A program made the translations under genes and the position numbers. A DNA stretch of 39,042 nucleotides from Escherichia phage CurroJimenez_Bas106: the sequence record PQ850599.1. One strand, written 5' to 3'. Below, piece after piece: positions 7,106 to 38,460 of the stretch. Under the pieces are notes generated by a model. That model was not told the origin of the DNA. It was given only the letters and a program-made list of their open reading frames with translations, and did no database searches. Each line of letters begins with the position of its first letter. Positions within the stretch are counted from its first letter, which is position 1.

Positions 7106-8523
7106 TGCCGATTCAGCAACTTCCGCTTATGAAAGGTGTCGGCAAAGATTTCCGAAACGCCGACTACATCGACTATCTGCCAGTGAATATGCTGGCTACA
7201 CCCAAAGAAATACTCAACAGCAGCGGATATCTTCGCTCATTCCCGGGCATTGCCAAACGTTCTGATGTGAATGGTGTATCGCGCGGTGTCGAGTACAACA
7301 TGGCGCAGAATGCTGTTTATCGCGTTTGCGGTGGCAAGCTGTACAAAGGAGAAAGTGAAGTCGGTGACGTTGCCGGAAGTGGTCGTGTATCAATGGCGCA
7401 TGGTCGGACATCACAGGCGGTAGGTGTTAATGGTCAACTGGTCGAGTATCGCTATGATGGCACGGTTAAAACAGTCTCAAACTGGCCTACAGACAGCGGA
7501 TTCACGCAGTATGAGTTAGGTTCGGTTCGTGACATTACGCGCTTACGTGGGCGTTATGCGTGGTCAAAAGACGGCACTGATTCATGGTTTATCACTGACC
7601 TTGAAGACGAATCGCATCCTGACCGTTACAGCGCACAATATCGCGCAGAATCGCAGCCGGACGGCATCATCGGTATCGGCACATGGCGAGACTTCATCGT
7701 CTGCTTTGGTTCATCAACGATTGAATATTTCTCCCTGACTGGTGCAACCACCGTTGGTGCCGCTTTGTATGTCGCACAGCCATCACTGATGGTGCAGAAA
7801 GGCATTGCCGGAACTTACTGCAAAACGCCGTTTGCTGATTCCTATGCGTTCATCAGCAATCCGGCAACGGGTGCTCCGTCTGTATACATCATCGGCTCCG
7901 GTCATGTGTCACCAATCGCCAGCGCGAGCATTGAGAAAATCCTCCGCTCCTACACTGCTGATGAACTGGCTGATGGTGTGATGGAATCGCTGCGGTTTGA
8001 TGCTCATGAGTTGCTGATTATCCACCTTCCTCGCCATGTTCTCGTGTACGACGCATCTTCAAGCGCCAATGGTCCGCAATGGTGTGTACTGAAAACAGGC
8101 TTGTATGACGATGTGTACCGCGCTATCGACTTCATTTACGAAGGAAATCAGATAACGTGCGGCGATAAGCTGGAATCCGTGACCGGGAAACTGCAATTCG
8201 ATATCAGCAGCCAGTACGACAAGCAGCAGGAACACCTGCTGTTTACTCCGTTGTTCAAAGCTGAGAACGCCAGATGTTTTGATCTTGAGGTTGAATCGTC
8301 AACTGGCGTAGCTCAGTACGCCGACCGCCTGTTCCTCTCTGCAACCACTGACGGCATAAATTATGGGCGTGAGCAGATGATTGAGCAGAATGAACCGTTC
8401 GTTTACGACAAACGCGTTTTGTGGAAGCGAGTCGGGCGCATCAGGAAAAATGTCGGCTTCAAATTGCGCGTTATCACGAAGTCACCTGTCACTCTGTCTG
8501 GCTGCCAGATAAGGATTGAGTAA
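7105..8523 (+). CDS. tail hub / head completion protein (P22 gp10-like)
   Basis: 472 aa, same length as P22 gp10; ATGA overlap with gp4 stop; conserved gene order. Confidence 0.85.
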
Positions 8524-10386: not shown

Positions 10387-11682
10387 ATGGCTACTTGGCA
10401 AGGATCAAATGGCGGATTGTTAGCTGGTATCGGCGGCGTAAACTCAAACGCTCCGAACGTAAATGACATCGGCAATACGCTTCAGCTTATCAGGCAGAAC
10501 AATGATATTGAGCGTTCAGGCGCTAACAATGTTGGGCTGACTGCTTTGCAAGGCCTTTCAGGTATTGCGGGGGTGTTTCAGCAGGAAAAGCAGGCTCAGC
10601 GGCAGAAAGAATTTCAGCAGGCATACGCTAATGCTTATGCGTCTGGTGATCGCGGTGCTTTGCGTCAGTTAGCTACTCAATATCCAGACCAGATTGAATC
10701 CGTTCGTAAAGGCATGGGATTCATTGATGAAGACCAGCGCAATTCCATCGGTACCTTAGCGGCTGGCGCCCGCCTTGCGGCATCGTCTCCAGAAGCGATG
10801 CAATCATGGCTGCAAAACAACGCCAAGGAACTGACTCGCGTCGGTGTTGACCCTAACAGCGTTGCTCAGATGTATCAGCAGAATCCTTCAGGATTTGGTG
10901 AGTTTGTTGATCACCTTGGGATGGCTGCTCTTGGTCCGATTGATTACTTCAATGTTCAGGACAAGATGGCTGGTCGTGAGATTGACCGAGGCAGACTGGC
11001 AGAGACAATCCGCAGCAATCAGGCAGGAGAAGCACTAACAGCTCGAGGTCAGGACATCCAGATACGTGGACAGAACATCAGCGCACAGAATGCTGCTCTT
11101 TCCCGAGAAATACAAAGAGCAGAATTACAAGAAAAGGCTCTGGACAGACAGATAGCCAGAGAAAGCAATCAGTTAAAGCTTGAAGAGCTAAAACAGAAAC
11201 AGGCAGATGTTCGGCAAAAGGCTGACATAGCCCGCGCTGACAGGCAGGCCGCCGCTCAGGGTGCAGTTGATACGTTCAGCACCGCGCTTGATTCTCTCAA
11301 CGAGATAGAGCAAAGCCCCGGCCTTTCAAAAGCAGTAGGAATTCGCTCAGCGTTTCCGACAGTTCCTGGCTCTGATGCGGCTAACTTTGAAGCAAGACTC
11401 GACACCTTTAAAGCTCAAACTTTCCTTCCTATGGTGCAGTCCCTTAAGGGTATGGGGGCTCTTTCAGATGCTGAGGGTAAAAAATTATCCGATGCGGTTG
11501 GTGCCCTAAGCCCCAAAATGAGCGAAAAGGCTTTTCGTGACTCTATCGGAAAGATTAGAAATCAGCTTGAAAGCAAGTTGAGCACTGTTAAAAAACAGTT
11601 TGATTATCAGGAGCCAGTACAGAATACGCCAGGACAACAATCTCCTGCTGGCAGTAACTTTTCTTCACTATGGGGTGATTAA
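10387..11682 (+). CDS. ejection protein, P22 gp20-like
   Basis: 431 aa, coiled-coil rich; position between gp7-like and gp16-like genes. Confidence 0.75.
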
Positions 11683-14174
11683 TGGCTAAAGCATGGAAAG
11701 ATGTTATCGCCTCTCCACAGTATCAGGCGTTAGCACCAGAACAAAAAGCGCAGGCTCAGGAACAATACTTCAATGAAGTCGTTGCCCCGCAAGCCGGAGA
11801 AAATGCAGAGCAGGCAAAACAAGCGTTTTACTCTGCTTACCCTAGAGGTCTGCTAGAGAAGGGTAATATTGACATTCACAATCGGCCTGTTGTTAAAAAC
11901 TCTGATGGCAGCATTAGCACTGTGCGGAGCATGTCTACCAATATAGATGGTAGAGAGGTGCTGATTCCTACCGTTAGTGATGATGGTCGCATTATGTCTG
12001 ATGATGAAGCTATTGATAACTTCATGAGGACGGGAAAGCATCTTGGTATGTTCGACAATCCTGACGATGCCACTGCATATGCGGAGAGTCTGCACAACCA
12101 GCAAGCTGATGAATACCTCCCTAGGAAGAATCAAGCTACACAACAGCCTGTACAGCAAAGTACACAGGCAGCGCCTCAGCAGCAGAAAGAAGAACCATCA
12201 TTGATGCAACAAGCTGGCGATTGGCTCACAGGTGGTCAAAGTGCAGGGCAAATTGCAGAGCAGGCTGGTCGTGGTCTGGTAAACATACCATTTGACGTAT
12301 TGCAGGGTGGCGCAAGTCTGATTAATGCAATCAGCCAGGGGATTGGTGGCCCCAAGGTTTTGGATGATGTTTATCGCCCTGTCGATCGACCGACAGACCC
12401 TTACGCGCAAGCCGGTGAAACAATTGGTGGGTATCTCCTGCCAATTGGCACAGCGGCAAAAGCTGCTGGAGCGCCAGCAAAGCTCGCTGGAGATATCGGT
12501 TCCGCAGGAAACATGATTGCAGGTTCTCTTGCTGATGCTGCAAATCAGGATGGCGATTTTGCACAAAATGCCGCCATTAACGGTGGTATCAATATTGGTG
12601 CTCAGGGGATACTTTCTGGGGCTGGAAGGATCTTAACCTCTAAATCACCTCAAGTTCTTGGTGGCGGGGCAATAAATTCCGCTGCTGATGTTTCGAAAAT
12701 GGCAAAGTCTGGTACAGGAAGAGAGATTATTGCCAGACAGTCAGCTAACGTGTCAGACGAAATAGCAAAAGCAGCAGATACTGCTGGAATAGATATCAAC
12801 GCATTAACTCCTGGCATGAGATCAGGTAGTCGTGGTCTTGCTCAGGCGGAGGGGATTCTGGCGTCAAAGCCCGGAATTACACAGGATGCACACACCAAAG
12901 CATTCAGTGAAATAGAGTCGAAATTTAACTCAGCATTGGATGAGTTTGGGGCTGAAGCAGGAACTGCATCAGAAAAAAGTGCAGCCATAAAACAAAGGGT
13001 TTTGGCAAGTATTGATAAAATGAAAAATTCAGAAAAGGCCGCATGGAATAGCGTCCGCTCCACGATGCCTGACGCAAAGGCCAGAATGTCAAACCTGAAC
13101 GCTACAATTCAGGGTGATATTTTGGCTGGCATGCCGCTAACTCCTGAGATGAAACAATTCGCATCTGCTTATGCTAAAACTGGTAAAAAAGGAATCACGT
13201 TTGATGCCATGAAGGCATGGCGAAGTAAACTTGCTGACGCAGAGCAGAAGTATATAAGGTCTGGTGAGGCAAATACGGCAAGGCGCATGGCTGAGCTTCG
13301 TGATGCAGCAACGGAAGATATGCGCATAATGGCTCAAAATGGCGGTTTTCTTGATGACTGGCAAAAAGCTAATGATCTGTCAAAGGCAAGATTTACAGCA
13401 CAAGAACAGGCTGAAGCAGCGTTTGGTAGAGACCTTGCAACTGATCAGTTGGTAACTAATGGCTCTAAGGCGTTACAGGGTTCAGCAAAAAGTGGAACAG
13501 GTCAGTTCCATAAAATAATAAGCGCCCTACCTGAGTCGGAACGCGCGCCAGCAATTGCATCAATATTACAAGATGCAATGTCGCAAGGGGTACGCGGAGG
13601 TAAGTCTGAAGAGGCTGGAATTAAGCATATCGCGACTATTCTTACCCCACAAAACGTGAAGGCAATTAGTCGATATTCTCCAGAACTTGGCAGGATTACA
13701 AGTTCATACGGAGAACTTGCACGAGCAGCAACAAAGCCACTTCGATATGTTGAACAGACAGGGCGATCTATGCCAGCCATTAGCACTCTTGAGAATGGCC
13801 TTCATCCAGTTTTAGAGAGCGCATTGTCTGGCGCTTTTAGAACTACTGGCACTATCGCAGGGTTCTCTGGAGGAGGAGTTATTGGAGCAATAGCGGGTGG
13901 CGCTGCAGGTGGAGCAATTGATGCAATGGCAAAAGGAGCGATAGCGAAATTATCCGCAACTAGAAGCGGTCGTTACGCTATTGAAAAGGCTGTTCAAGAG
14001 GCAACAAAGGCCGTTAAGGTTGGGGCAAGTGATGGTGCATTAGCGGCGGCGGAACGCAGATTTATGGCAAATAAAGCCGCCGTAAAAGCAATACGCGATG
14101 CTATTGGTAGCGATGAATTCAATCGCTTGTCGAGAGCTGGTATTGTCGCCTCGTTAAGCGGTATGAATGAATAG
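11682..14174 (+). CDS. ejection protein, P22 gp16-like (enlarged, 830 aa)
   Basis: ATGA-overlapping start with gp20; Ala/Gly-rich; last virion gene before tailspike; about 220 aa longer than the 609 aa I recall for P22 gp16. Confidence 0.7.
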
Positions 14175-14398
14175 CTTTATCTAATGTTGCTGCTCTATAT
14201 CAAACTTTAACGCAATGCTGCGCAACTTAAGTGACTGTCAGGTTGATAACAGACACTCTTTTTTGCATGATTCCTTTAGACCATCACAATTGATGAAGAA
14301 TCATGAAAAGAAGAACTCTTCTAAAGTCTTTGCTCGGCCTGACGTCACTCTTACCAGTTAAGTTTGCAGCATCTCAAAACCTGCAAGGTAAAAGTATA

Positions 14399-16297
14399 AT
14401 GTCAGACATTACACCCAATGTTGTAGTGAGTATGCCTTCGCAACTCTTCACTATGGCTCGTTCTTTTAAAGCCGTAGCTAATGGAAAGATTTATATCGGG
14501 AAAATTGACGCTGACCCGGTAAACACTGAAAACCAGATTCAGGTTTATGTAGAGAACGAAGATGGTTCTCACGTTCCTGTTTCGCAACCAATCATCATTA
14601 ACGCTGCTGGATATCCGGTATATAACGGACAGATTGCTAAATTCGTTACCGTGCAAGGCCATTCTATGGCTGTTTATGATGCCTATGGTGCTCAGCAATT
14701 CTATTTCCCAAACGTGCTGAAGTATGACCCGGACCAGGCATTGCCAGCATTTAAGGCTGATTTGACTGGTCCTGATGGTGCTGACCTTGTTGGTTATGGA
14801 GATTCCACTGTCGAGGCAGAGTTAGACATCCTGACTACATCTAATGGGTGGTACGTAACTCCTGATCAGTTCGGCGCGAAGGGTGATGGCACTACCGATG
14901 ACACAGCGGCGATTAGTGCGGCAATTGCTGAGTGTGCTTCTACAGGGAAAACATTGCTCCTGCTTAATAAACGCTATGTGTGGAATGGGCCAACCATATC
15001 CACCGATAAAATATCCGTTATGGGCGTCCGTCGCCCAAGCCCTGACGCGACGCTATCCAAGCTGGAAAACGGCAGCATCATTGTCGGTACCATGATATTT
15101 TCCGGAACTCGTGTTCAGGTGCAAAACTTTGGTGTAGACCACGGTTCAGCCACATTCACTTCTGGTGGTGATGCGCTAGTGCTTTCCGCAACTGAAAAGA
15201 ATGGGCTGTTTGGTATCATCCGGAACTGTGTAGGTCTTGGAAGAAACTCATCTGACGCTTACCATGCAATTCTCTGTGAGGGTTACAAATACTCAACGGT
15301 GAGAGATATCATTGGCTGCCAGAACTTATATGGCTATGCACAGAAATGTAATTATTCCGTATCAAGCGGTGTTGTAGTAAAAAACAACCAAAACGGAATA
15401 ATCATCAAATCAGACAGTGTATTTGGCGATGGAAGCCAATCAATTCTTAGTGATGTTGTTATTGATGGTAATGGATTAACATCTATTGGCGTCTGGGTTT
15501 TCTCGCTGGATGCACAACTTCAAAAAGTAAACATAAGTAACGTGACCTCGTCTGGTTGCTCTTATGATATCGTAGTGCAGGCTGCTGAGAACGTCATTAA
15601 TGAAATTAATATTAATAACGTAGCTGCGAGTTCATCACGCATTGCATCAATCTGCCTGGCTGGAACTGCAGTTGATAAAATTTACACAGCCAATATCAGC
15701 AATGTTGCTATAGGTGAAGCAGCGGGAATGCTAATAGATGCCCAGACATGTAACTTCCTTAACCTGACAAACGTAACTGGACGAATAACAAACGAATCAA
15801 CGCATGCTAACGACTCAATAAACATTGGAGCATTAGTAGGAAGCTCTAACATCAGCAACGTGTTCCCTACCATCAACTACAGTCAGGATGTACTTGCTGG
15901 CATTACCTATCTTAATAACTATAAAAACAACACGCTTACCAATTATAAGGCGAACGTGTTTGGTGTTGGGGCTCCGAAACCAGGTTACGACACGCAAAAC
16001 ATTGATACCAATGTCGGAAGCGTGTACCTGAGGAGCAGTGCAACTAACTCTTCATTCCTGAGGTTAACGCCACTTAGTAACTCATCCATTACGACGCTTA
16101 ACATCACCACTCAAGCAGGTGGAGTGATAAGCCCGGGTTACACATGGTGGTTACAAAACGCATCACCATCATTCACGCTGTCTATAGTTCCATCATCAGG
16201 AGGTCACATCGTCACTTCAGGCAACTCTACCAAGGTGCTTAGCGGTGGAGACAAGATAGGATTCATGTTCGACGGAGCGACATGGATTCAGATTTGA
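14399..16297 (+). CDS. tailspike protein (P22 gp9-like head-binding domain, divergent receptor-binding beta-helix)
   Basis: From the Met at 14399 the first ~110 aa ([37 protein letters not shown]...) are near-identical to the P22 tailspike N-terminal domain; the remainder is divergent, Asn/Ser/Thr/Gly-rich. The ORF-track start at 14303 adds 32 unconserved codons. Confidence 0.9.
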
Positions 16298-16536
16298 TGA
16301 TGCAGCCATGGATGGCTACATGAATGGGTGGTGCAACTGATGGTGAGTTCAGAATTAAGCGTTACCTGACATACCCATAACCGCATCTGGAAAATCTGGG
16401 TAACGGAAAGAGGGAGAGGATTCCTGACAAGAATTAGGCCTCTGAGACTTCTCGACCTGTATTTGTGGTGATCACCTACATCATCAACGATGCGCGTGCA
16501 GGTTAGTTTGATGATTTCCCAGGGATGTAGGTGGCG

Positions 16537-17694
16537 CTATGCCACTTTTTCATCAAGCCAATCTGCCCACCACTGCATCATTTCTCTGCGCTTATCAAGA
16601 TACTGAGCATGGTTGTAAATTCCACGCACAGATCCGCCGTTGGCATGTGCCAGTTGCACTTCAATAGCGTCAGCAGGCCATTCGTGCTCGTTCATAATCG
16701 TGCTGAATTCATGCCTGAATCCGTGACCGCTTTCCAGACCCTCATAGCCGATTTGTTTGATCACAAGTAGCACCGCGTTCTCGCAGATTGGCTTTTTCTT
16801 ATCGTTGCGCCCGGCAAAAACAAACTCTGATACTGGTTTGGTGATTGAGCTTAGCGTAGTGAGAAGTTCAACCACCTGGTCTGACATCGGTACTACATGA
16901 ATTTTGCGGCCCTTCATCACACTGGCGTCGATAGTGATAATCCTGTTTTCAAAATCGACGTTCTTCCATTGCATGGAACGAAGCTCTTTCGTTCTTAGGG
17001 CTGTGTAGCGTAAAACTTTGGTCGCAATGAGCGATACGATGCTTCCTGAAAATGTTGCCAGTGCTTTGTTGAATGCAGGGATCTGGTCTGCTGGAAGAAA
17101 CGGGAAGTTCTTCTTGCGGTATCCTTTCATGGCATCTGCAAGGTCAGGTGCCGGGTTATATTTAGCCCTTCCGGTGACAATAGCGTAACGAAAAACCTCG
17201 CCGCATCTTCTGCGGGCTTTGTTGGCTCGCTCCATTGCACCGCGATCTTCAAATCTGCGGATTACTTCCAGCAGTTGCATCGGCTCAATATCCTGAATCT
17301 CAAGACCGCCGATGATGGGTAAAATGTCGTCATCAAACATTTTGGCAAGTTCAGTTGCATAGCCTACTGACCAGACTTGCTTCTTGTGCTCGTACCATTC
17401 CTTGTAAATCGCACTAAATGAATTGTTGTTAGACGAAGCCTTTTTCGCCTTTACCGGATCGATGCCAACCGAGATGTCTTTCCTCGCAGTCCATGCCTTA
17501 TCCCTTGCTTCCTGCAAAGTCATAAGCGGATATTTTCCGACAGTCAGGATTTTCTCCTTACCGTCAATCTTGTAGCGAAGCTGCCATACCTTTTTCCCTG
17601 ATACAGGGACATAAAGGTACAGGCCATTACCATCGAGTAGGCGGTATGGTTTTTCTTTCGGCTTTGCTGCTTCAATCTGCTTAACGGTGAGCAT
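16537..17694 (-). CDS. int: tyrosine integrase, P4 family
   Basis: 385 aa from ATG at 17694 (MLTVKQIEAAKPKEKPYRLLDGNGLYLYV... is the typical P4-type N-terminus); C-terminus has R...HxxR...Y catalytic-domain features. An alternative GTG at 17730 adds 12 codons. Confidence 0.85.
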   Translation of the reverse strand: MLTVKQIEAAKPKEKPYRLLDGNGLYLYVPVSGKKVWQLRYKIDGKEKILTVGKYPLMTLQEARDKAWTARKDISVGIDPVKAKKASSNNNSFSAIYKEWYEHKKQVWSVGYATELAKMFDDDILPIIGGLEIQDIEPMQLLEVIRRFEDRGAMERANKARRRCGEVFRYAIVTGRAKYNPAPDLADAMKGYRKKNFPFLPADQIPAFNKALATFSGSIVSLIATKVLRYTALRTKELRSMQWKNVDFENRIITIDASVMKGRKIHVVPMSDQVVELLTTLSSITKPVSEFVFAGRNDKKKPICENAVLLVIKQIGYEGLESGHGFRHEFSTIMNEHEWPADAIEVQLAHANGGSVRGIYNHAQYLDKRREMMQWWADWLDEKVA

Positions 17695-17949
17695 GGGTAA
17701 AAATCCGGTGGGTAAAATTATTTTATCCACTTTTTACCCGTCATGGAGTGCGGCTGTCAACGATCTGACGCGAACCATGACGAACTGCGAATCTACGGAA
17801 GACTTGATATTCAGGGGATTTTGCGGACTGGTACGGATGGGAGCGAACTGATAAATGGTGTCCCCTGCAGACATCTACTTGACGCGGCAGGGGATTGATT
17901 GGAATGATGTTTTTTAGATGTGAGAAATATTTTACCCGCTATTTTACCC
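17695..17949. repeat. five copies of 8-bp motif GGGTAAAA/TTTTACCC flanking the candidate attP core (putative arm-type Int sites)
   Basis: GGGTAAAA at 17695-17702 and 17710-17717; inverted copy TTTTACCC at 17732-17739, 17930-17937 and 17942-17949. Confidence 0.45.
17856..17870 (-). other. candidate attP core: tRNA-Arg (argW-type) 3'-terminal 15 nt
   Basis: Minus strand reads CTGCAGGGGACACCA, matching the 3' end of E. coli argW as I recall it; flanked by the 7-bp inverted repeat CCCCTGC/GCAGGGG; between the int and AlpA-like genes. Confidence 0.5.
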
Positions 17950-18144
17950 ATTAGCGCGGCTTAAGAGCTTATTTTTGAATTCACAATGGTCACGATATAA
18001 CCATCGTGCTCGCCCGTGGATAACTTTGGCTTTAGGCAGGTCTCCGGACTTAATCCGGTCATAGATGAAGGTCTTACCGAAGCCAGTATCGGCCATGATG
18101 AATTTCAAATCAACCAGTGAATCAGGCTGTAGTTCGTGTTGCAT
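17944..18144 (-). CDS. AlpA-family HTH protein / putative excisionase
   Basis: 66 aa; GGAGA SD 9 nt upstream; pattern TGF..T.IY..I..G.LP.A...AR.W typical of AlpA/Xis-like winged-helix proteins; sits next to candidate attP. Confidence 0.6.
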   Translation of the reverse strand: MQHELQPDSLVDLKFIMADTGFGKTFIYDRIKSGDLPKAKVIHGRARWLYRDHCEFKNKLLSRANG

Positions 18145-18187
18145 GAGTGCTATCTCCGAATAGGGAATCGAACCTGCAAATCAGGCA

Positions 18188-18210
18188 ATAAAAAACCGCC
18201 ATCAGGCGGC
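18188..18210 (-). terminator. rho-independent terminator (minus strand)
   Basis: Minus strand GCCGCC-TGAT-GGCGG hairpin followed by TTTTTTATT; overlaps the stop of the 55-aa ORF. Confidence 0.7.
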
Positions 18211-18369
18211 TTGGTGTTCTTTCAGTTCTTCAATTCGAATATTGGTTACGTCTGCATGTGCTATCTGCGCCCACAGCATCCAGTGGTCATAGCAGTCGTT
18301 GATGTTCTCCGCTTCGATAACCCTGTTGAATGGCTCTCCATTCCATTCTCCTGTGACTCGGAAGTGCAT
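18202..18369 (-). CDS. hypothetical protein (55 aa)
   Basis: Found by manual translation (below the ORF-track threshold): ATG with GGAG 9 nt upstream; stop codon lies inside a rho-independent terminator hairpin. Confidence 0.35.
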   Translation of the reverse strand: MHFRVTGEWNGEPFNRVIEAENINDCYDHWMLWAQIAHADVTNIRIEELKEHQAA

Positions 18370-37790: not shown

Positions 37791-37932
37791 ATCTGAATTT
37801 CACAGCGCATCTCACGCGCATATTAACGAGAGCCTTTCAGTAAGCGAGCCTGAGAAATGCCGTTATAGGTGGCGACCTCTCTCGGGCGGCTTTTCTGTGA
37901 GACAGGCTCACTTTCTAAAAGGTAAAGACGCT

Positions 37933-38460
37933 ATGAATCATCAATTGGCTAATCTCGATTTCCGGGACATGGTGGTTGTTTCTGGTGATCGCGTGATCAC
38001 AACCTCCCGCAAGGTAGCAGCTTACTTCGACAAGCAGCATCACCACATCATTCAGAAAATCGAAAAGCTAGACTGTTCGGATGAATTTCTAACCAGCAAC
38101 TTTTCGCGGGTTACCTATGAACACAAGGGTAATCAGTATGTTGAATATGAAATTTCCAAAGACGGCGCGATGTACATCATCATGTCGTTTACCGGCAAAA
38201 AAGCTGCCGCCATCAAAGAGGCGTTTATCAAAGCATTTAATTGGATGCGTGACAGGCTGATGGAGATGGCTCACTCATACCAAAGAGAGCACAACGAGTT
38301 AATGCTGGAGTTCATGAAGGAAAAGGATGTTGCCAGTATGTCAGGACGCTTGCTGAACCGCTGGGGCAGGATCAAAAAACCGCAACTCATAGCAAGAATC
38401 GAAAGGCTTGAGCAGCAGGCGCAAATATCGATCCCCGGACTTCCAGTCAGGCGGCGCTAA
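37933..38460 (+). CDS. rha: Rha-family phage regulatory protein
   Basis: 175 aa from ATG 37933; LANLDFRDMVVVSGDRVITTSRKVAAYFDKQHHHIIQKIEKL resembles Rha-domain proteins; same position as P22 rha; the ORF-track 5' extension crosses a terminator. Confidence 0.6.
   Translation: MNHQLANLDFRDMVVVSGDRVITTSRKVAAYFDKQHHHIIQKIEKLDCSDEFLTSNFSRVTYEHKGNQYVEYEISKDGAMYIIMSFTGKKAAAIKEAFIKAFNWMRDRLMEMAHSYQREHNELMLEFMKEKDVASMSGRLLNRWGRIKKPQLIARIERLEQQAQISIPGLPVRRR

Follow-up and report, generated by a model that had tools for sequence, protein, structure and literature searches.

A 39,042-nt stretch of DNA from Escherichia phage CurroJimenez_Bas106 (PQ850599.1; hereafter, the window) was analyzed, and positions 14175–16297 were studied in particular. 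This region very probably represents the single receptor-binding protein gene of a P22-like podovirus (Lederbergvirus), a tailspike gene in which a conserved virion anchor is joined to an acquired receptor cassette for O16 O-antigen, in an Sf6-type layout without the immI region. Infection by CurroJimenez (Bas106) is totally dependent on the O16 O-antigen of Escherichia coli K-12, and its efficiency of plating is strictly wbbL-dependent, i.e., dependent on O16 (PMC11990801). For the related phages Louie, Dewey, and Huey, K-12 with the O16 O-antigen restored served as the isolation host and is the only one on which they plate (PMC12243541). The receptor, the modularity of the protein, and the immI-less layout have already been published (Sf6; Villafane et al. 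2008; Humolli et al. 2025) and are ordinary for the group.

The head-binding (virion-anchor) domain was encoded by the first 113 codons of the tailspike gene (14399–14737, plus strand). The Pfam family Head_binding (PF09008) matched residues 1–113 over the full length of the profile with 219.8 bits (cut-off 24, E 8e-66). This part was identical at 83 of 113 positions to P22 gp9 (73.5%; E 1e-47), at 102 to Sf6 gp14, and at 111 to the tailspike of an E. coli prophage. Chains 7sg7 of Sf6 and 2vky and 1lkt of P22 were found as its matches in the PDB (phmmer); the alignments ended at amino acid (aa) 114 for P22 and continued weakly to aa 182 for Sf6. By analogy with the solved tails of these two phages, aa 1–113 would attach the tailspike, as six trimers, to the tail hub.

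The joint between the two parts of the protein was located at 14736/14737, in codon 113 after the residues YDPDQ; at this point, Sf6 and the prophage PigCaeca_1 cease to resemble the window (blastn), and nucleotide similarity to Sf6, HK620, CUS-3, and approximately 1100 E. coli prophages ends at 14736–14753. On the 3′ side of this joint, the DNA was common to only four phages and one prophage lineage. Two more joints were mapped with blastn: the left one at 14195, where a 204-bp leader common to phage APC_JM3.2 and prophages begins, and the right one at about 16334, 37 bp past the tailspike stop. The “bsq1 boundary sequence” of CUS-3 was considered as a precedent for the joint at 14737 and dropped, as it is the spacer upstream of the CUS-3 tailspike.

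The remaining 519 residues (aa 114–632) were unrelated in sequence to the C-terminal part of the P22 tailspike (best BLASTP E value of 0.29; global alignment z of 1.7 against shuffles), and a search of the PDB with a profile of 71 sequences brought up no chain of the P22, Sf6, or HK620 type at E ≤ 1. An earlier note on this DNA, made from the sequence alone, had proposed that a domain swap redirected the tailspike to another surface receptor, with an N-terminus near-identical to P22 gp9 and an unrelated C-terminal part of about 550 aa. The swap itself is borne out by the end of similarity to relatives at about codon 113 and by the published O16 dependence (PMC11990801, PMC12243541), and no close alignment of the C-terminal part to the P22 endorhamnosidase was obtained beyond aa 114. 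The conserved P22-type head-binding domain was correctly recognized, while “near-identical” overstates the identity of 73.5%, and the exchanged part is shorter than proposed. The word “unrelated” is valid for the sequence only, since the predicted fold class matches that of the P22-like (9NA), Sf6, and HK620 domains.

The swapped module starts with a linker or neck (aa 114–150, 14738–14848, plus strand), as placed by alignment and by the breakpoint at 14736/14737. Homology to siphovirus- and T7-type O16 tailspikes begins at about aa 118–124, and aa 115–146 of the monomer model had low predicted local distance difference test (pLDDT) values. The neck is followed by a predicted right-handed parallel beta-helix of the pectin-lyase-like type (aa 151–529, 14849–15985, plus strand), presumably the domain that binds and cleaves O16 O-antigen, and by a putative C-terminal beta-sandwich domain (aa 530–632 and the stop, 15986–16297, plus strand), which is all-beta in the AlphaFold2 (AF2) model. 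Taken together, aa ~114–632 very probably constitute a horizontally acquired cassette of neck, beta-helix, and beta-sandwich that, judging from the literature, recognizes E. coli O16 O-antigen. The pectate-lyase-like family PF12708 was assigned by Pfam to aa 157–408. PF25692 (Phage_depo_C) reached 15.5 bits in the window protein (cut-off 25, E 0.024) and was present in 43 of the 71 homologues aligned end to end at E ≤ 0.001.

The AF2 monomer model of the receptor domain, built from the 71-sequence alignment, had a pLDDT of 92; an earlier full-length model from an alignment of 8 sequences had a pLDDT of 59 and was discarded. In the fold comparison, the model matched the AlgE4 epimerase (36.6), a GH87 glucanase (34.3), the Dettilon tailspike (34.1), phi29 gp12 (32.8), the P22-type 9NA tailspike (28.6), and the HK620 tailspike (27.6), with sequence identity of 10–17% in all six cases. 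Foldseek concurred on the beta-helix matches and listed the Sf6 tailspike as well. The model thus assigns the receptor domain to the right-handed parallel beta-helix fold of pectin-lyase-like phage depolymerases and places the swapped module in the fold class of the receptor domains it replaces (9NA, Sf6, HK620), with no specific close structural relative.

The DNA of the 2.1-kb region was 100% identical in Louie and Dewey, 99.5% in Huey, and 99.1% in APC_JM3.2, while the remaining phages matched the head-binding part only; the receptor domains of these four phages were 97.3–99.8% identical to that of the window at the protein level. Among 50,697 phage records, receptor-domain homologues at E ≤ 1e-10 were found in 15, of which 13 are O16-dependent isolates of the Harms laboratory. 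Four of the 15 are Lederbergvirus isolates, and 11 are other E. coli phages at 33–54% identity. Ten of these 11 (Bas70-73, Bas77-80, Bas82, and Bas105) are O16-dependent phages of the BASEL collection, of unrelated types and with other anchors. In KarinMuster Bas82 and the Kayfunavirus ElsieAttenhofer Bas105, the receptor domain was homologous over its full length at 53–54% identity; the same was true of Bas70-73 (Kagunavirus according to the paper) and Bas77-80 at 33–35%. Their N-terminal anchors were of the Tail_spike_N or T7-tail type, whereas Head_binding was found here, which fits the differing virion architectures. One receptor-domain family with one receptor across virion architectures agrees with Figure 11A of Humolli et al. 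2025 (PMC11990801), and by its sequence the receptor domain appears to be a member of the O16-O-antigen-specific tailspike clade of these authors.

In 5426 complete E. coli genomes, the head-binding part was present in 1129 and the receptor-domain DNA in none. A word-indexed protein search returned seven receptor-domain relatives, including an E. coli prophage cluster at 97% identity and three proteins at 53–55% identity with a TSP1/Gp66-type N-terminal domain. This count reflects the sensitivity limit of the method, because, when 1.84 billion cluster representatives were searched exhaustively with HMMER, 460 relatives passed E ≤ 1e-3 and 51 passed E ≤ 1e-30; their typical length was 500–800 aa. 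Tail_spike_N, T7 tail, Head_binding, and tail-collar fibre (tail_fib) anchors were all represented among the 71 aligned members.

The commonness of swapping was surveyed in 80 IMG/VR loci whose head-binding domain was at least 93% identical to that of the window. When the receptor domains of their 75 complete tailspikes were grouped at ≥50% identity, 58 clusters resulted, and none of the tailspikes had the receptor domain of the window. With 58 clusters in 75 tailspikes, swapping at the head-binding junction is the rule in these loci; conserved head-binding domains joined to unrelated receptor domains have been described for P22-like phages (Villafane et al. 2008, PMC2629481). A leader-plus-tailspike cassette identical to that of the window was found in the E. 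coli prophage L005 (GCA_037012965.1). Upstream of it, at 7114–7708, this prophage contained a Mnt/Arc-like gene and a truncated head-binding fragment of 70 codons, from a different lineage and 60% identical to that of the window, which looks like a scar of the replacement of a whole tailspike gene.

The tailspike gene was separated from the upstream ejection protein gene by a spacer of only 224 bp (14175–14398), in the place of the “ant moron” of P22 (sieA-mnt-arc-ant). No genes were detected in the spacer, and its small open reading frames (ORFs) had no PHROG match. Proteins taken from the annotated P22 record (SieA, Orf59a, Mnt, Arc, Ant, and GtrA/B/C), as well as Oac of Sf6, had no counterparts in the whole window (tblastn, best E value of 0.28); the 2.9-kb immI DNA of P22 gave only chance matches of 13–21 nt (blastn), and a Mnt-like protein of a prophage had no match in the window. 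The queries for antirepressor, Mnt, and Arc were of the P22, CUS-3, and L005 types, which very distant analogues may escape. These data confirm both a gap of about 220 bp between gp16 and the tailspike (the ejection ORF ends at 14174, and the tailspike starts with ATG 14399) and the absence of the sieA/mnt/arc/ant block, as the earlier note had stated.

Because immI (mnt/arc/ant/sar), sieA, and O-antigen conversion genes are missing, lysogeny control must rest on the lambda-like immC region alone, and the phage is devoid of tailspike-linked lysogenic conversion. At least one homologue of Mnt, Arc, Ant, SieA, or HkcB was encoded upstream of the tailspike in 76 of the 80 IMG/VR loci; none of these was present in the other four, three of which had a spacer of less than 300 bp. 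The total lack of the “ant moron” is therefore a minority state in the group, yet it is the state of the well-studied Sf6, and the Sf6-type lack was treated explicitly by Villafane et al. 2008 (PMC2629481).

Six polar residues of the receptor domain—D247 (15137–15139), H289, E294 (15278–15280), K316, K337, and D339 (15413–15415)—were invariant or nearly so in the 71 homologues, which are 21–55% identical. Their conservation points to D247, E294, and D339 as candidate catalytic residues, and the beta-helix probably hydrolyzes the O-antigen via these conserved carboxylates. Several points weigh against such a reading. PF12708 barely passed its cut-off (27.6 vs. 27 bits), the score coming mostly from the N-terminal GDG motif, and the candidate catalytic residues were selected by conservation alone. 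The “enzymatic” action of the tailspike is an inference in the published paper too (PMC11990801), and the label of the best PHROG family reads “colanic acid degradation”. We consider it unlikely, but worth weighing, that the receptor domain binds O16 and is no glycosidase, acting as a lectin-like adhesin or through deacetylase or lyase chemistry: the six (near-)invariant polar residues across the 71 homologues form an active-site pattern, and no SGNH esterase domain was found in the tailspike by Pfam. Characterized O-antigen tailspikes of the beta-helix fold (P22, Sf6, and HK620, with 9NA assigned by homology) are endoglycosidases, which counts against mere binding. As for lyase chemistry, the O16 repeat, reportedly described by Stevenson and co-workers in 1994, is said to contain no uronic acid for beta-elimination, which counts against a lyase. 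A target other than O-antigen, i.e., colanic acid or another exopolysaccharide, is the least credible of all the alternatives. The label of PHROG 8280, “tail spike protein with colonic acid degradation activity”, is repeated in the record of Louie, and the Phi92 colanidase gp150 was among the Foldseek matches (E 1e-4); however, this likeness is that of a generic beta-helix (TM-score of 0.35, 12% identity), plating strictly needs wbbL/O16 (PMC11990801), and the homologous receptor domains elsewhere come from phages isolated as dependent on O16. Cleavage of O16 O-antigen by the beta-helix, which we prefer, would give the virion a path through the lipopolysaccharide layer as far as the outer membrane; by analogy with known systems, DNA delivery would then fall to the needle and the ejection proteins.

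Two other alternatives concern the layout and the start of the gene. That immI has moved to another genomic site, or that an analogous antirepressor module at such a site has taken its place, is very improbable. A single antirepressor-like gene was detected in the window (37903–38442), and its product, of the Rha family, had 44% identity to P22 Rha, which the P22 record labels “anti-repressor”; rha is no substitute for immI, however, because P22 has it besides immI, and the P22-, CUS-3-, and L005-type queries revealed no Mnt, Arc, or Ant homologue. Even less weight can be given to a real product of 664 aa starting at ATG 14303 and bearing a signal-peptide-like N-terminal extension. The tailspike frame is indeed open without interruption over 14303–16297, the extension shows a KRR-plus-hydrophobic pattern, and both Louie and the NCBI E. 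coli cluster P0001 (663 aa, 184 members) carry the long form in their annotation. Nevertheless, the start at ATG 14399 (MSDITPN..., 632 aa), which is backed by homology, is better supported than that at 14303. An AAGG motif was found 10 nt 5′ of ATG 14399, while no Shine–Dalgarno sequence precedes 14303, which lies within the 3′ arm of a predicted 17-nt hairpin. The P22 and Sf6 proteins and the solved chains align from their own residue 1 at the equivalent of 14399; the start assigned by PGAP in prophage PigCaeca_1, which has an identical leader and a different receptor domain, is the equivalent of the same ATG; and the MSDIT start is also given in the APC_JM3.2 record and in the alignment of the BASEL authors. 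The openness of the upstream frame is no evidence of selection, because all copies of the leader are at least 99.5% identical. The in-frame extension of 32 codons (14303–14398, plus strand), annotated as part of the tailspike in some records, is thus probably untranslated. Start annotation was split between the database records, including PQ850616 (CDS0015) and P0001, with 664 or 663 aa in some and 632 aa in others.

The RNA of the 204-nt leader of the tailspike cassette (14195–14398, plus strand) was predicted to be highly structured, with a minimum free energy of −61.2 kcal/mol and a z-score of −4.28; none of 200 shuffles was as low. Folding of the minus strand was weaker (z −2.53). The spacer between ant and gene 9 of P22 was structured too (z −4.42), as was the Sf6 leader (z −2.71). 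Copies of the window leader were found in only eight records, at 99–100% identity; a search of the E. coli genomes, the phage collection, and the 80 IMG/VR loci for diverged copies brought up none below 99.5%. An Rfam scan of 13900–18300 gave nothing near the gathering score; the sub-threshold matches to ftsZ-DE, isrK, and c4-a1b1 are probably due to chance. Promoter and terminator sites were no more numerous than in shuffles. The leader could act as a structured cis-acting RNA that sets tailspike dosage, by attenuating or stabilizing late-operon read-through, in place of the “ant moron” terminators; separately, the receptor domain could have an uncharacterized glycosidase specificity for the galactofuranose-containing O16 repeat. 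We regard these as speculative and distinctly unlikely.

Upstream of the spacer, an ejection (DNA transfer) protein of 830 aa was encoded in the gp16 position (11682–14174, plus strand; ORF list). Its best family was PHROG 770, “DNA transfer protein” (E 3.6e-216), and no Pfam family was found in it. Residues 1–54 were 98% identical to aa 1–54 of Sf6 gp13, and aa ~143–318 were 66% identical to aa 26–182 of P22 gp16 (tblastn in both cases); residues ~55–142 had no match with P22, Sf6, or L005 ejection-protein queries. By sequence, the protein is a mosaic: its N-terminus resembles Sf6 gp13, one segment resembles P22 gp16, and the remainder is divergent. The label gp16 is consistent with the PHROG 770 match, but resemblance to P22 gp16 is limited to aa ~143–318. 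The protein is longer than its counterparts in P22 (609 aa), Sf6 (665 aa), and Louie (718 aa); in APC_JM3.2 and L005, the protein is 911 aa long and contains an SLT lytic transglycosylase domain. The genes directly 5′ of the tailspike encoded a gp7 homologue (83%), a gp20 homologue (PF16928; 431 aa, Inj_translocase in Pfam), and the PHROG 770 protein. The tailspike is accordingly the final gene of the late operon, after the gp7, gp20, and gp16 homologues, as in P22-like (Lederbergvirus) phages. The G+C content of the window was 0.477, and two tRNAs were found, the values published for Bas106 (PMC11990801); the CurroJimenez tailspike sequence printed in that paper agreed with the window protein over the portion given, about aa 1–205.

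Downstream of the tailspike, a remnant of an umuD-like (S24 peptidase) moron was detected at 16291–16434 (plus strand). Residues 51–98 of the intact UmuD-like ORF of L005 matched the window at 71% (E 8e-19, tblastn). The remnant is a pseudogene: it contains an in-frame stop, and the window lacks approximately 460 bp that are present in APC_JM3.2 and L005 (10325–10621), where the gene is intact. No O-antigen conversion genes were found between the tailspike and int, where the umuD-like remnant was the only gene trace. The integrase gene (16537–17694, minus strand, also given as 16537–17730; Pfam integrase domains) is convergent with the tailspike and of the Sf6/CPS-53 IntS type: its product was identical at 382 of 385 residues to Sf6 Int, at 383 to K-12 IntS (CPS-53), and at 381 to Louie Int. 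A match to isrK in Rfam was located antisense within int (17132–17222, plus strand); with only 23.4 bits (gathering score 50; E 0.049), it is probably due to chance, as is that to c4-a1b1. The 16-bp attP core ATGGTGTCCCCTGCAG (17855–17870) exactly matched the 3′ end of the tRNA gene argW and was identical to the annotated attP core of Sf6 and to K-12 argW at the attL junction of CPS-53. It has been speculated that the clear plaques of CurroJimenez result from K-12 lacking attB (PMC11990801). The similarity of Int to CPS-53 IntS and to that of the temperate sibling Louie, together with the identity of the attP core to the 3′ end of argW in K-12, argues against this speculation.

The region is a textbook example of host-range change in P22-like phages, in which the anchor is kept and the receptor domain is exchanged. 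In this case, the joints are placed at base resolution, and one O16 module occurs on Head_binding, T7-tail, and TSP1-type anchors, which can be used in the engineering of receptor-binding proteins and in the prediction of host serotype from sequence. The region raises no new question.

Among known systems, Louie, Dewey, Huey, and APC_JM3.2 have the gene, the leader, and the genome position in common with CurroJimenez, while the flanks differ; thus, the umuD-like gene is intact in APC_JM3.2, and the integrase of that phage differs from that of the window. P22 gp9 has a homologous head-binding domain and, like the tailspike described here, comes last in the late operon, whereas its receptor domain has no detectable sequence similarity. 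P22 also contains the 2.9-kb sieA-orf59a-mnt-arc-sar-ant block and gtrABC, none of which is present in the window. The receptor domain of Sf6 can be aligned with that of the window at the GDG cap motif only, although the beta-helix fold class is common to both; the annotation of the Sf6 tailspike is that of an endorhamnosidase acting on the O-antigen of Shigella flexneri, while the tailspike of CurroJimenez is directed at O16 O-antigen. Between the tailspike and int, Sf6 has oac, and the window has the umuD-like remnant. The order of gp13, a 164-bp spacer, and the tailspike, without immI, in Sf6 is the same as that found here with a spacer of 224 bp. The genome order—ejection protein, short spacer, tailspike, and int—is of the Sf6 type, and the phage is better called Sf6-like than a P22 with a deleted block.

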